Shown here piece by piece: positions 12,459 through 55,797 of a stretch of DNA of 64,000 bases; the first letter of the stretch is position 1, and each line of letters begins with the position of its first letter. Made by a program: the position numbers and the translations under genes. Origin of the DNA: an uncultured delta proteobacterium (GTDB lineage Bacteria > Desulfobacterota > Binatia > UBA9968); assembly GCA_963771465.1 (NCBI GenBank), contig CAVYTU010000005.1, positions 32,001-96,000 on the forward strand. The letters are read 5' to 3'. Under the pieces are notes generated by a model, which saw only the letters and a program-made list of their open reading frames with translations, was not told the origin of the DNA and did no database searches.

Positions 12459-13994
12459 TCATTGCGCCGCGGCGCGTGCTGCTTGCAGTGTCGCGCTATC
12501 GCCGTGAATGCCGACGATAGTGCTCACATCTAGGTTGAGTTTGTCCAGCGCGGCGACGAATTCCTTGACCGCCGGCGCAGCGCGAACCTGTCCGTTGCGC
12601 GGGCTGATGTGATCGGCTTCGATCAAAAGCTTTTCCGCCGGCAGGTAAATCACGACGAGGTCTGCGGCATGGGAAGTCGGCATGGGGTAGACTTCAATGC
12701 GCCGGCTGCTATCTGTCAAAATCCGCGGGCCGCCGGCGAAGGATTCGATGACGACGCCACCTTTGTGTTGTGCCAAACTGTCCGGCCTTCGGCTATGGGG
12801 CGCTTTGGCAACCAAAGCATAAAAATCTTTCGCGACAAACGGCGTGATAATGGTGGCGCCGGTGGCCATGAACGCGCGAATGCCGCCGGAGTGGTCGAGA
12901 TGATGATGGGTCGAGACCACGTAGCGGATCGGTTTGTTGGGAAATTTTTCTTTGATCGATTTGACTACCGGCGCGGTGCGCTCTTCATACAGCGGACCTT
13001 CGATGGCGACCAGATGATCGCTCATCTCGACGAGGATGGTTGCGTGGGAACTGCCGCCAATTTTGTGCACACCGTCGGCTAAGCGCAGCCACTCGATATT
13101 TGCCGGACGACCCATATCTTGGTAGCTCACGTTGCCCGCCACGCGCCGCATGATCCATTGGGACGCGATCGGCGTGGCGTCGGGTTTCTGGTTGCGGATG
13201 GATTCGGGGATGGCGAAGACTTCTGCGCCAACAGCAACATTGTTGCGTACCGAGTTGATCTGCTCCTCTTGCAATAGGCGGCCATTGAGTTCCAAGCGTA
13301 AGCTGAAAGGCATCATGACATTGTCGGTCTTGCGCCAGTCGGCAAAGCGCAGCAGATAACTGCTATCGCCCTCCAAGGGGTCGTCTTCGAGAATGTCGAC
13401 CTGAGCCGGTAATCGGGTCTTCGGGTCGAGATACAGTCGGAACTCGTCGCCAGCTTCGCTAAAGGCGACCACGTGATACAGAGTGCCGTTGAGTTCCGCA
13501 TCGGCGAGGCGACGCAGTGTTTTGTTGGCGACGGCAAGGCGAATGAGTTGCACGGGCGAGCGCTTCTCTTCACGCATACGGGTGGCCAAGCGGCCGGGGT
13601 GAAGGCGGCTTGGCTTGGCGTTTTTGGCGTCGCCTTCTAGGAGTAAGCCGACCGAACCATCGATTACCTCGACGAAACGGATATTCTCATTGCGCGACGA
13701 AGTGCGCGCGTCCCAATCGAGCCGCAAGCGCGGCTGATTGAGATCACGGGTCAACGTGTAACGAAAAGTGTTGATCTGGCGCTGCGGTCCCAACTGGGCA
13801 ATCGGCGCCGAATTGAACTGCTTGCCTTCGCTCTCGACAACTTGATTGTTAACGGCGCGCAATGCCGCCATGCCGCCCATTGCCTCGGCGGCTTGATCGA
13901 CCAACGCACTGGCGCTTTGCGCATTTGCCGAGCCGATATCAAAGGCCGCCAGCGTGAGGGCGAGCAGCCCACGATGGAAAACGGTGCGGTTCAT
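12459..13994 (-). CDS. Secreted MBL-fold metallo-hydrolase
   Basis: Signal peptide; THHHLDHSGG; GIHG. Confidence 0.85.
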   Translation of the reverse strand: MNRTVFHRGLLALTLAAFDIGSANAQSASALVDQAAEAMGGMAALRAVNNQVVESEGKQFNSAPIAQLGPQRQINTFRYTLTRDLNQPRLRLDWDARTSSRNENIRFVEVIDGSVGLLLEGDAKNAKPSRLHPGRLATRMREEKRSPVQLIRLAVANKTLRRLADAELNGTLYHVVAFSEAGDEFRLYLDPKTRLPAQVDILEDDPLEGDSSYLLRFADWRKTDNVMMPFSLRLELNGRLLQEEQINSVRNNVAVGAEVFAIPESIRNQKPDATPIASQWIMRRVAGNVSYQDMGRPANIEWLRLADGVHKIGGSSHATILVEMSDHLVAIEGPLYEERTAPVVKSIKEKFPNKPIRYVVSTHHHLDHSGGIRAFMATGATIITPFVAKDFYALVAKAPHSRRPDSLAQHKGGVVIESFAGGPRILTDSSRRIEVYPMPTSHAADLVVIYLPAEKLLIEADHISPRNGQVRAAPAVKEFVAALDKLNLDVSTIVGIHGDSATLQAARAAAQ

Positions 13995-14021
13995 GTTTTC
14001 CTCCCAGAACGGTTTTGAAGT

Positions 14022-14876
14022 TTAACGCAGATGCTCGAGTTTGCGCCGTGAAATTTCTTCCACCTTCAGTTCGGAAGCAAAATTGTAGAGCGATGTCTCC
14101 CACGATCCATACATCGGATTGGGCAGCATAAACCATTTGGTGCCCCAACTATTATGTTTCTTAGCTGCGAGCACGCGCGCGTGCGGCGCGGTTCGATATT
14201 CCGAGATGAAGTCGCCCAGATCATCGCCAAATAGCATGAGCACGCGAAAACTTTGGGCGATAAACTGGCGCCGGCTGCCTTTGTCGACACCCCAATCTGG
14301 CTGTTCGTTGGCGCTGAGCACGGTGTCGATGTTCGTTGGCAAGGCGATGCCAACGCCGGCGAGTTGGAGGCGCGTGACCGGTTCAGTGGCGTGATCACGA
14401 TTGGTCACGAAGAAGACTGAAACGCCGCGCGACTGCGCCAAGGAAATAAATTCCAAGGCGCCGGGAACCGCAGGCGGCTGGTTTTGATTTAACCAATTGC
14501 GCCACACGGGGCTGGCAAAGCGCGCGCCGTTTTTTACCAGGTGACTTTGAAAGCGGCCGGTGTCGAGGACGGTTTCATCGATGTCCATGATTACGGCCGG
14601 CGGCAGAGTTTGAGAATTCACTGATTGCGCGGGGAGGGCGCTCCACTGGCGGTCGGCGAGGGCGCGCTCCAAATGCACCGCCGCCGAAGCGTAAATCGTT
14701 TGGGCGAGGACGTGGTATTCCGCCGATGTGGTTTGCCATAGAATCGCATCGAGCCGATCGTCCGTTCCCCGGTTGAGGGCGCCTGGCGAATCAGCCAGCG
14801 GCGCGCTGCATCCTGCGCTCAGTAGCGCGAAACCGAGCGCCCACAGGGTGTTTTGAAATAAAATAGTTTTCTGCAA
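14022..14876 (-). CDS. Class C acid phosphatase / 5'-nucleotidase lipoprotein e(P4) family
   Basis: Lipobox LSAGC; DIDETVLD; GDDLGDF; LPNPMYGSWE. Confidence 0.9.
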   Translation of the reverse strand: MQKTILFQNTLWALGFALLSAGCSAPLADSPGALNRGTDDRLDAILWQTTSAEYHVLAQTIYASAAVHLERALADRQWSALPAQSVNSQTLPPAVIMDIDETVLDTGRFQSHLVKNGARFASPVWRNWLNQNQPPAVPGALEFISLAQSRGVSVFFVTNRDHATEPVTRLQLAGVGIALPTNIDTVLSANEQPDWGVDKGSRRQFIAQSFRVLMLFGDDLGDFISEYRTAPHARVLAAKKHNSWGTKWFMLPNPMYGSWETSLYNFASELKVEEISRRKLEHLR

Positions 14877-31814: not shown

Positions 31815-32810
31815 TCACTTGATCAACTTGGTCGCGCGGGCGAGCAACTCCGGCGGAATCGTTAGGCCGATCTGCTTGGCTGTTTTCAGATTGACGACAA
31901 ACTCGAACTTCATCGGCTGCTCAACTGGTAGATCGGCAGGCTTCGCGCCCTTGAGAATTCTGTCGATGTAGTATGCGACGCGCCGGTAGCTGTCCGCTTG
32001 GTCCGCCGCGTAGTACATGAGCCCACCAGCATTTACATATTCACTTCTGAGGTACATCGACGGCAACCGGCTCTTTAACGCCAAGGCCCACAATCCGTTT
32101 TTGGTTAGCACGTCATTAGCGGGCTCGCGAGCACGTAGAGTCCATCCGGGCGCTGCTTGTTCAGCGCAGCGAATACCTTCTCGAAACCGTCCGCATCTCG
32201 TAGCTCCCAAGGCTGAATAGTCAACCGCAGCGCACGCGCCGCGGCTGGGAGAACCTCTTTCAGCTCGAGTGCACTGCCCAGAGTAGCCGGATCGTAGAGA
32301 ACCGCGACACGGGCAAGTTTCGGAACGGCTTCTTTGAGCAGCTCCAGCCGCTTCCCGCCTAGGTCTCTGGTAAGGTTTGTAATGCCGGTGACGTTGCCGC
32401 CAGGACGGGCAAGGCTTTCAATTAGGCCCGTCTTGACAGGATCGACCCCAGCGCCCACCATAACGATAGGAATCGTCTTGGTCGCGTTCTTGGCCGCCTG
32501 GACCAGATCTGGCCCCGCCTGCTGCCACGATGATATCGACCTTGAGACGCACCAGCTCGGCCGCAAGCTCAGGAAACCGATCCCGCTTCCCCTCCGCATA
32601 TCGGTACTCGATGGCGATGTTCTGTCCTTCTATGTAGCCACGCTCGCGCAGAGCCAGCCGAATTCCCTTGGAACGGGTGGACTCACTAGCTGGATCGACA
32701 TTTGATACATACCCTATCAGAGGGACTTTCTTCGGCTGCTGCGCCCGGGCTGGAAAGGGAAGAGCCAAGAGTATCGAGCAGAAAGCTCGCCGAGTGATTC
32801 TGGTTTTCAT
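31815..32810 (-). CDS. ABC_sub_bind (Trp/Tyr-type) substrate-binding protein, frameshifted
   Basis: GYIEGQNIAIEYR, SLARPGGNVTG, GAKPADLPVEQP..F..NLKTAK. Confidence 0.85.
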
Positions 32811-32833
32811 TGGGTTGCTCACGTTACAGACGA

Positions 32834-32916
32834 ATGGAGTGTTGGAGTAATGGAGTATTGGCATGTGTCCGGACCAATCACTCCATCACTCCAATACTCC
32901 ACTATTCCATCACTCC
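32834..32916. repeat. 8-bp periodic inverted repeat (TGGAGT.. / ..ACTCCA)
   Basis: atggagtgttggagtaatggagtattgg ... ccaatcactccatcactccaatactccactattccatcactcc. Confidence 0.85.
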
Positions 32917-32922
32917 GCCTTC

Positions 32923-33484
32923 TCACGGCGTATTTTGCACCACCGGACGATTCAGCAACCGGTTCATCCAAGCTTTGACAATGGGTATGTCATCGCCAAT
33001 CGTCGCTTGATAGCGTTCGAGCCGGCAGAAGAACGGGATGTAGGTGATGTCGGCCAACGAGTAGTCGCCGGCGATAAAATCTTTGTTGCGCATCTCTTGA
33101 TTCAAAGTCGCCAGATGTTGCTTCATCTGTTCTTTGGACTTTTCGACTTGGTAGTCGTGCGCGACATTACCCGCGGCCGGCTTGTAAGCGCGTGTTGGCG
33201 AAGTCGATCCAGATGCGCGCCCGCGCCCGTTGGTAGGGATCTTTCGGCATCAGCGGTATCGCGGGAAATTTTTCCTCCAAGTATTCATCGATGATCGCCG
33301 ACTCGTAGATCACTGCATCGCCATCTTCCAACACGGGGACTTTGCCGTAGGGATTGCGCTCGAGCAGCTCTTTCGATTTGTTCTTCAAGTCGCACTCGAT
33401 GAGATCGTATGAGATGTTCTTTTCGGCCAGGACAATCCTTGTCCTGTGGGCGTAGGGTCAAGGCTGATAGGAAAACAATTTCAT
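32923..33484 (-). CDS. Glutathione S-transferase, probable selenoprotein (UGA at codon 9); frameshift ~33180
   Basis: SD GGAGGT; MKLFSYQP-UGA-PYAHRTRIVLAEK...NPYGKVPVL...YESAII; C-domain FIAGDYSLADI. Confidence 0.85.
33428..33446 (-). promoter_or_regulatory. Putative bacterial SECIS hairpin
   Basis: CAGGACAA-GGA-TTGTCCTG begins 11 nt after the UGA at 33460-33458. Confidence 0.75.
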
Positions 33485-33732
33485 GATTCACCTCCGTGGT
33501 TAAAGTTTAGTCGACGAGCCATTGGCAACGAATATAGGGGAGGCAGTAGACAATAGGCAACCGAAAAGGCATGGGGCGAGAGGCATGTAGTCATGGCCGC
33601 CGCTTTCAGCAAATTTCTTGGTGCGCGTAAAATAGGGCAGACAAACTGCGGCGTCAAGGAGAAATCTCCCCGCTATCGTTGTCTCGTTACGCATGTTTGT
33701 GGTTTAGAAATGAACCAGAGGAGTAACCAACA

Positions 33733-34777: not shown

Positions 34778-35238
34778 AATTAAAAATGCAAAATTAAACA
34801 TTAAAAAAGGGGAGGCGACCATGGAATTAAATAAGGCGCCGGCCATTACGGTGAGATGCTTCGATTTTGCCGTCAACGTCGTTGCTTCTGTCAAAAACTC
34901 GACACGAAGCCGGGAGTAAGCCGGATTTTGAGTCGGCAGCTTCTACGATCTGGCACCTCAGTGGGAGCGAATGTCGAAGAAGCACAAGCCGCGCAAAGCA
35001 CCGCGGACTTTGTCAGCAAATGTTCGATCTCACTCAGAGAAGCCCGCGAATCAAATTATTGGCTGCGATTGTTGGAAGCCTCGGGCGAAAATGCAAGTGA
35101 TGACCTCAAGCTCTTGGCGCGTGAAGCGGATGAACTATCACGTATCATCGGTACGATCATTGTCAAAACTAAGAACCGGCGAAAAGATCAGTAAACTTGC
35201 TTCCCCTTTTTTAACTTTTAATTTTGAATTTTTAATTA
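34778..35238. mobile_element. Putative cassette: four-helix-bundle gene enclosed by ~41-bp inverted repeats of 7-bp units
   Basis: Left arm 34778-34818 matches the reverse complement of right arm 35197-35237 at 36/41 by eye. Confidence 0.6.
34821..35194 (+). CDS. Four helix bundle protein (TIGR02436/23S-IVP-like), frameshift ~34885
   Basis: R.FDFA..V; QLLRSGTSVGANVEEAQAAQS.ADF.SK.SISLREARES.YWL.LL. Confidence 0.9.
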
Positions 35239-39209: not shown

Positions 39210-39282
39210 GATGGGCGTGATGGAATTCTGGAGTGTTGGAGTCATGGGTTGCCGAAACTCCAATTCTCTATCACGCCAATTC
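39210..39282. repeat. 8-bp periodic inverted repeat (TGGAGT family)
   Basis: ggcgtgatggaattctggagtgttggagtcatgg ... actccaattctctatcacgcc. Confidence 0.7.
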
Positions 39283-55720: not shown

Positions 55721-55797
55721 ATTGGAGTACTGGAGTGATGGAGTTCTGGAGTATTGGGGTCCGGAACGCATCACTCCATCACTCCAACACTCCAATT
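55721..55797. repeat. 8-bp periodic inverted repeat (TGGAGT family)
   Basis: attggagtactggagtgatggagttctggagtattgg ... catcactccatcactccaacactccaat. Confidence 0.85.

Follow-up and report, generated by a model that had tools for sequence, protein, structure and literature searches.

The TGA codon of a glutathione S-transferase gene

Does a TGA codon close to the beginning of a glutathione S-transferase (GST) gene stop translation or is it read as selenocysteine (Sec), and can the gene that carries it still give a complete enzyme? These questions are raised by a locus on the minus strand of a 64,000-nt stretch of DNA from an uncultured delta proteobacterium, hereafter called the window (GenBank assembly GCA_963771465.1, contig CAVYTU010000005.1, positions 32,001-96,000 of the forward strand). 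The genome holding the window, here G000, comprises 6.9 Mb in 19 contigs. On the basis of the sequences compared below, the predicted reading of this TGA as Sec is well supported. An earlier note, made from the letters of the window, had described the locus as a Sec-recoded GST gene; that reading is supported by the present analysis, while a +1 frameshift between the two domains of the enzyme had been overlooked.

The observation as such is confirmed, since the Shine-Dalgarno sequence, the ATG and the UGA in frame with the GST N-domain, all of which the note had named, can be read directly from the minus strand. The Shine-Dalgarno-like GGAGGT is located at 33490-33495, 5 nt upstream of the ATG start codon at 33482-33484, and the region around it, ACGGAGGTGA, is retained in the closest orthologues, L031 and L032. 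After the ATG, the codons are AAA TTG TTT TCC TAT CAG CCT TGA CCC TAC GCC CAC AGG, which translate as MKLFSYQP, followed by the TGA (codon 9, 33460-33458) and by PYAHRTRIVLAEK onward, giving the motif U-P-Y-A-H-R when Sec is assumed at the TGA. The frame encoding the N-domain occupies 33167-33484 (105 codons) and its read-through product matches the Pfam families GST_N_3 (E 6.8e-21) and GST_N_2 (E 6.7e-20). Because of the frameshift it ends at a TAA (33169-33167), and the C-domain (Pfam GST_C, E 1e-11) is found in a second frame at 32923-33182, shifted by +1 relative to the first. Thus, both GST domains (COG0625/PF13409) are matched, and the genes of relatives contain one TGA each, but the copy in the window does not have an uninterrupted frame over the two domains, even when the Sec codon is set aside. 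The C-terminal frame ends with an ordinary TGA (32925-32923), at which no hairpin of the recoding type is present. Since the gene uses TGA as its own terminator, this codon is not reassigned throughout the genome, and recoding would have to depend on the local context.

Conservation of the TGA codon and pairing with cysteine

As the earlier note had anticipated, the UGA is kept in relatives and is paired with Cys in homologues. All 20 loci that were fetched first from relatives carry TGA at the aligned codon of a 186-codon GST gene with an unbroken frame, in the motif [QGRHT][PTGA]-U-PYAHRTR and with a start codon 8 or 10 codons ahead of the TGA. In an enlarged set, the TGA motif was found in 55 of 57 loci, the two exceptions being a fragment at a contig end and a match of 41% identity, and when metagenome contigs were scanned with a Cys homologue, TGA was obtained in 79 of 80 loci and TGT in the remaining one (L135). 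Altogether, 148 other TGA loci were compiled from relatives' genomes and soil metagenomes, with protein identities ranging from 43 to 99%, and every one of them has TGA at the same codon. The letter itself also stood up, as no alternative to TGA is listed in independent soil assemblies, that is, in contigs of related strains. In the orthologues, the coding sequence is open on both sides of the UGA, and the upstream codons, the start codon and the ribosome-binding site are retained.

A six-frame search of 40 relatives, including one unpublished genome (G005), identified 37 genomes, belonging to three families of the order, whose homologues contain a single TGA and usually come as two paralogues per genome. 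Among the matches listed for G004, G001 and G036, a TGA-form GST was not found; G001 is only 65% complete, G004 and G036 carry selA, and G004 also carries selB.

The nearest paralogues without TGA from the same genome (L023-L025, 39-51% identical) were considered as Cys partners and discarded, as they carry Ser; for this reason, the partner was taken from a database search. The claim that the gene is invisible to ORF (open reading frame) callers was borne out by the same search, since the family is truncated in the database, with 117 of the 120 best proteins spanning only 69-92% of the full length. Eight out of ten database sequences that were fetched begin downstream of the TGA, another one (P0013) reads the TGA as W, and the last (P0066) is a full-length Cys form. 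P0066, which stands for a cluster of 149 member sequences, has 186 aa, is 62% identical and reads CPYAHRTRIVLAEK, with Cys in a C-P-Y motif at the aligned residue. The classical Sec/Cys pairing is therefore present, and the TGT of L135 is in line with it.

A hairpin downstream of the TGA codon

A perfect 8-bp hairpin with a G-rich loop, 11 nt downstream of the UGA, had been described in the earlier note and is indeed present at 33428-33446. It consists, after a spacer of 11 nt (33457-33447), of the 5' arm CAGGACAA (33446-33439), the loop GGA (33438-33436) and the 3' arm TTGTCCTG (33435-33428). We propose, from its sequence and its conservation, that this hairpin acts as a bacterial selenocysteine insertion sequence (SECIS). 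Like SECIS elements of the Escherichia coli fdhF type, and those searched for by bSECISearch, it is situated within the coding sequence just 3' of the UGA, and its apical loop begins with G residues. This loop lies 19 nt from the UGA, and the bSECISearch model, presented by Zhang and Gladyshev in 2005, reportedly allows a range of 16-37 nt, which would include the hairpin of the Sec-GST. In contrast to bacterial SECIS elements, however, the stem is very short, with an invariant core of 4 bp, its sequence is near-invariant instead of covarying, and its binding by SelB is a prediction.

In order to follow the conservation of the hairpin, 54 nt around the TGA were taken from the 148 loci, leaving out L044, which belongs to an unpublished genome, and this gave a set of 107 different sequences. 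In all of them, the core of four pairs (GGAC/GUCC) and the A-U pair at the top are invariant, and 95.1% of cells are paired, a share that drops to 26-51% if the partner is displaced by 1-3 columns. Compensatory changes were found in 3 cells affecting 2 pairs, a pair count matched by 3 of 500 shuffles. A compensatory change from A-U to G-C is seen in L046 and L082, and the most distant TGA member, L085 (43% identity), has GAGGACGA-GGA-TCGTCCTC, in which a C-G pair is replaced by G-C and an A-U pair by G-C.

Codon usage in this region is strongly constrained. Arg at position +7 after the TGA is encoded by AGG in 107 of 107 sequences, although AGG represents 3.5% of the Arg codons in the long ORFs of the genome; Arg +5 is AGG in 95 and CGG in 12 sequences, 92 of 107 have ACA for Thr +6 (genome usage 8.6%), and all 107 have GTC for Val +9 (genome usage 40%). 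Pro +1, Ala +3 and Ala +11, on the other hand, each make use of all four synonymous codons. L135, the sole TGT form with DNA in hand, encodes the same peptide HRTRIVL as CAC AGA ACA CGA ATC GTC CTG, codons which break three of the eight pairs of the hairpin and lose the GG of the loop. Since L135 keeps HRTRIVL with the hairpin destroyed, the nucleotides are dictated by the UGA and not by the peptide. Furthermore, the pattern GGAC[ATG]AGG[AC]T[TC]GTCC occurs only twice in the 6.9-Mb genome, each time in a GST paralogue and 13 nt past its TGA.

Part of the evidence on the hairpin speaks against a role in recoding. A stretch of 66 nt folds at -11.2 kcal/mol, which corresponds to z = -0.03 and is equalled by 93 of 200 shuffles, so that folding energy was discarded as uninformative and the significance of the hairpin rests on conservation instead. 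Covariation is thin, being limited to the 3 cells and 2 pairs mentioned above, and 17, 12 and 13 of the 107 sequences lack pairing at pairs 1, 2 and 7, respectively, which means that only the 4-bp core and pair 8 are strictly kept, with AAGG[AC]UU at the top. In addition, a scan with Rfam returned no family matching the SECIS region, the lack of an Rfam model being another difference from bacterial SECIS elements.

These data also bear on whether the TGA is just an ordinary stop, either because of a nonsense mutation or because translation starts downstream of it, in which case the hairpin would be a by-product of the HRTRIVL peptide. Gene callers agree with such a stop, most database entries begin downstream of the TGA, and the hairpin energy is at chance level. 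A nonsense mutation, however, would not have survived at the same codon of 148 loci, and the eight codons before the TGA stay open, a start codon and a ribosome-binding site being present as well. A product starting after the TGA would lose its first strand and the catalytic residue, and, as for the peptide, the Cys form encodes HRTRIVL otherwise, while the codons that are fixed in the TGA forms are rare in the genome. We consider an ordinary stop hardly credible.

Selenocysteine machinery and a second paralogue

The components for Sec insertion, which the earlier note had suggested looking for, are all present in the genome, and the matches to selA (537 bits), selB (359 bits), selD (376 bits) and tRNA-Sec (76.7 bits) are above the family cut-offs. 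The tRNA was also reported by ARAGORN as tRNA-SeC with anticodon TCA. Regarding distribution, selA was found in 37 of the same 40 relatives. The selD gene (contig C14, 200711-201637) has an in-frame TGA of its own at the known Sec/Cys site, in the motif AAG-U-AAKLGP, and 25 nt further on there is an 8-bp hairpin whose top, CAA-GUU-UUG, is similar to CAA-GGA-UUG in the Sec-GST. The second Sec-GST paralogue, located on contig C17 (841564-841866), contains the TGA and is intact, with an open frame of 216 aa.

The selB gene (contig C14, approximately 198,726-200,613) changes frame at residue 28 as assembled, owing to an extra base in CGGTTTAAAGG. It is found in one frame in five of five genomes of the same genus. 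Either the assembly is wrong here or the Sec elongation factor is broken; if the break were real, the cell would be unable to insert Sec at all.

On the same contig, at 13177-14205 and thus outside the window, a GTPase-like ORF matches the selB model (85.7 bits, positions 46-342) and has one in-frame TGA. This ORF may represent a further selenoprotein gene or one more lesion of the assembly.

The frame change between the two domains

The shift of the C-domain to the +1 frame is caused by a single extra base with respect to all relatives, within AAGCCGGCCGCGGG at 33171-33183, as seen in an alignment to four orthologues. When the orthologue from the related genome G024 was compared by tblastn, its residues 1-96 (94% identity) were found in frame -3 and its residues 94-177 (87% identity) in frame -1. 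The C part of 84 aa (87% identical to G024) contains no further stop, and no other lesion was detected in the gene. We also examined Logan contigs from three soil DNA runs and one metatranscriptome, which come from four studies and represent related strains of 90-99% likeness. The extra base is absent from all six contigs crossing the site (three in run X1 and one each in X3, X5 and X13), which account for the full depth at the site in each run, the missing letter being placed at 33177, 33181 or 33183.

Given that both halves of the gene are otherwise intact, the shift might be thought to be a programmed ribosomal frameshift. Yet it is absent in the relatives examined, where a single 186-codon frame is present in 20 of 20 loci as well as in the six contigs, and the lack of conservation at the site leaves no slippery context that the sequences could share. 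Practically no weight can be given to programmed frameshifting here.

A survey of frame switches against 219 kb of G024 covered 116 ORFs with an orthologous locus and about 36.6 k aligned residues. Ten switches were obtained in seven flagged ORFs, and nine of the ten are +1. The tblastn matches had to be grouped by locus, because an intact paralogue outscores the broken orthologue and hides the breaks in the GST gene and in the adjacent ABC_sub_bind gene. Two of the seven flagged rows are weak, one being an antisense out-of-frame ORF that overlaps ABC_sub_bind and the other reflecting a match to an ABC_sub_bind paralogue on contig C15. At the five sites that were inspected, the alignments have single-base insertions in G000, and the rate of +1 insertions relative to G024 is about 1 per 11 kb. 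Counting indels between the two genomes by blastn had given many spurious 1-nt gaps at 84% identity and was replaced by this survey. For +1 insertions that occur approximately once per 11 kb and also affect the selB gene, needed by the genome's own selenoproteins, residual assembly errors fit better than natural decay. We infer that the extra base at about 33171-33183 is quite likely an assembly insertion error and that the gene is not a true pseudogene.

A different account accepts that the Sec-GST of the lineage is real and regards the copy in the window as a recent pseudogene, which would yield an N-domain fragment of at most 105 residues and leave the cell to rely on the second, intact paralogue. 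In the assembly, the frameshift stands, and the extra base is contradicted by no read-level data; moreover, the intact paralogue on C17 would make the loss tolerable, and the ABC_sub_bind gene next to the copy in the window is broken twice, which could mark a decaying region. However, the same kind of +1 break recurs along the genome at the rate given above, and also in selB, which is required by the TGA-containing selD and by the Sec-GSTs. Natural gene decay is biased towards deletions, and a bias of nine in ten towards +1 is not expected of it. A second lesion is absent from the gene, and the six contigs without the extra base come from four runs. On balance, recent decay of this copy seems unlikely to us.

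The breaks in selB and in the Sec-GST gene, both of them +1 insertions unique to G000, could also be real and linked if this strain were losing Sec decoding altogether. Nevertheless, selA, tRNA-Sec, selD with its TGA kept, and the second Sec-GST are intact, and genes unrelated to selenium show the same type of break, which makes such a loss very improbable. The frequency of +1 insertions in this assembly means that caution is needed before any apparent pseudogene, including selB, is accepted as such.

Overall, we consider it probable that the locus encodes a Sec-GST recoded by way of the hairpin and that the frameshift is artefactual; with the extra base being an assembly error, the gene would be intact in the living organism. 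Several points weigh against this explanation. Selenium incorporation is a prediction for every member of the family, and the sequences compared are related, so their counts do not represent independent events. The selB gene is frameshifted as assembled. The extra base of the GST gene is not shown to be an error: the best public run has only 0.38 of the sampled words, and the crossing contigs all derive from other strains, none of them being at least 99% alike across the site. With respect to the survey, it preselected ORFs intact in G024, and the reciprocal test flagged five cases, so that it provides no clean estimate for G024. These cases can tentatively be explained as echoes of the G000 shifts or as paralogues, their segments at 60-66% identity being typical of out-of-frame translations.

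Protein affinities and predicted activity

Over the full length, the closest solved structures are the plant Tau GST 7dwf (9e-31), the SspA-like protein 6v91 (1.6e-29) and human Omega GST 1eem (2.3e-27). With the Cys-type GSTs (Omega GSTO1, 1eem; SspA-like, 6v91 and 4qq7), the Sec-GST shares the fold along the full length, with E values of 2e-27 to 2e-29. These enzymes have a thioredoxin-like N-domain with C-P-F/Y at the start of helix 1, where the U-P-Y of the Sec-GST matches; in the alignment to 6v91, Sec9 is opposite the Cys of the C-P-F motif, and counting by offset (query 2 = chain 25) would place it on residue 32 of 1eem, the catalytic Cys of GSTO1. The Sec-GST differs from them in having selenium in place of sulfur and a much shorter N-terminus than GSTO1, and its activity is a prediction. 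Plant Tau GSTs (7dwf, 4chs and 2vo4) are its best-scoring solved relatives and show the same two-domain architecture, but 7dwf has Ser at the Sec position (WPSPFSHR), and Tau-class enzymes perform conjugation chemistry and not thiol transfer.

The product is predicted to be a GST-like enzyme of 186 residues and two domains, belonging to the Omega/Tau/SspA-like branch, with Sec in the active site where GSTs of the CPY/CPF type have Cys. During its synthesis, the UGA at codon 9 would be recoded co-translationally, the hairpin (core GGAC/GUCC, loop region AAGGAUU) recruiting SelB with Sec-tRNA(Sec) to the ribosome, while the terminal UGA, which has no such hairpin, would terminate translation. 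Cys-type GSTs are the model for the thiol-transfer and reductase chemistry expected here. By this analogy, the most likely activity is a glutathione-dependent thiol transfer or reduction, for example deglutathionylation or a reaction of the dehydroascorbate or arsenical type, which may proceed through a selenenyl-sulfide (Se-SG) intermediate. The sole support for such an activity is the presence of the glutathione synthetase gene gshB (394 bits) in the genome.

Relation to known selenocysteine-containing glutathione S-transferases

The earlier note had called Sec-GSTs an established class, and this agrees with the literature. The new selenoprotein families described from the Sargasso Sea include a GST, which is represented by four sequences and has Cys homologues that are widespread (Zhang, Fomenko and Gladyshev 2005, PMC1088965), and a review of 2026 lists a 'GST-like protein, PF13409, 1 Sec' among prokaryotic selenoproteins, with '-' as the motif entry, and describes the function of nearly all computationally identified selenoproteins as largely uncharacterised (PMC13188914). 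The published family and the one described here have in common that they are GSTs (COG0625/PF13409) with one UGA-encoded Sec, that they were predicted computationally and that Cys homologues are widespread (PMC1088965). The published family is marine, from the Sargasso Sea, whereas the clade of the window is found in metagenome-assembled genomes from soil assigned to Candidatus Binatia or Deltaproteobacteria. The clade of the window, with two paralogues per genome and a presence in 37 of 40 relatives, is likened to the published family by description and not by sequence or position of the Sec. No literature linking Binatia with selenoproteins was found in the library searched, although the supplements of PMC1088965 and PMC13188914 may list such sequences, and the words 'Binat', 'soil' and 'Desulfobacterota' are absent from the 2026 review (PMC13188914).

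The gene in the window adds one more instance to a selenoprotein type that is already known and leaves the knowledge of recoding unchanged. To our knowledge, no Sec-GST has been characterised so far. A tentative suggestion, about which we have more doubt than confidence, is that the soil (Binatia-type) Sec-GSTs form a clade distinct from the marine ones of 2005, with a paralogous pair kept across an order of abundant uncultured soil bacteria and a near-invariant mini-SECIS, GGACAAGGAUUGUCC. In the metagenome loci retrieved, the TGA form dominates the Cys form by 79 to 1. If the clade is distinct, the near-invariance of the mini-SECIS would imply that the SelB of the lineage recognises a sequence and not a shape, and the clade would constitute a good natural system for learning what selenium buys a GST, as well as a marker of selenium dependence in soil communities. 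It offers natural Sec/Cys pairs (P0066 and L135) in genomes with a complete Sec system. Nearly every database entry of the family is an N-terminally truncated 'GST' without the catalytic residue and, as a consequence, the selenium dependence and the true active site of the family are invisible in the annotations of soil metagenomes.

Neighbouring genes and repeats

The gene order amidohydrolase, cupin, Sec-GST and ABC_sub_bind is common to G000 and G024, and this synteny suggests no specific pathway. The downstream ABC_sub_bind gene (PF04392, substrate-binding; 31815-32864, minus strand) is distributed over the ORFs 32418-32864, 32105-32599 and 31815-32210, which lie in three frames and cover profile positions 12-69, 73-190 and 203-292. 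Two frameshifts are thereby implied, the syntenic orthologue in G024 being a single ORF of 329 aa. On the other side of the Sec-GST gene, between the cupin and amidohydrolase genes, the window contains a gene of 112 aa for a 23S_rRNA_IVP protein (PF05635, 1.5e-16) on the plus strand (34856-35194). In G024, only about 160 nt separate these two neighbours, and the ORFs listed for the syntenic stretch include no 23S_rRNA_IVP gene.

Just past the stop codon of the Sec-GST gene, a long imperfect palindrome made up of TGGAGTRWTGGAGT units was found at 32822-32916 on the minus strand, with a folding energy of -54.4 kcal/mol. Rfam gave only sub-threshold matches to microRNA hairpins for this region. 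The palindrome is not part of the recoding signal; it looks like a dispersed repeat, similar to repetitive extragenic palindromic (REP) sequences or miniature inverted-repeat transposable elements (MITEs), and possibly serves as a terminator. All four soil runs show spikes in depth at 32874-32921, and the TGGAGTRWTGGAGT unit occurs 52 times in the genome, appearing again in the window near 39229 and at 55731-55781.

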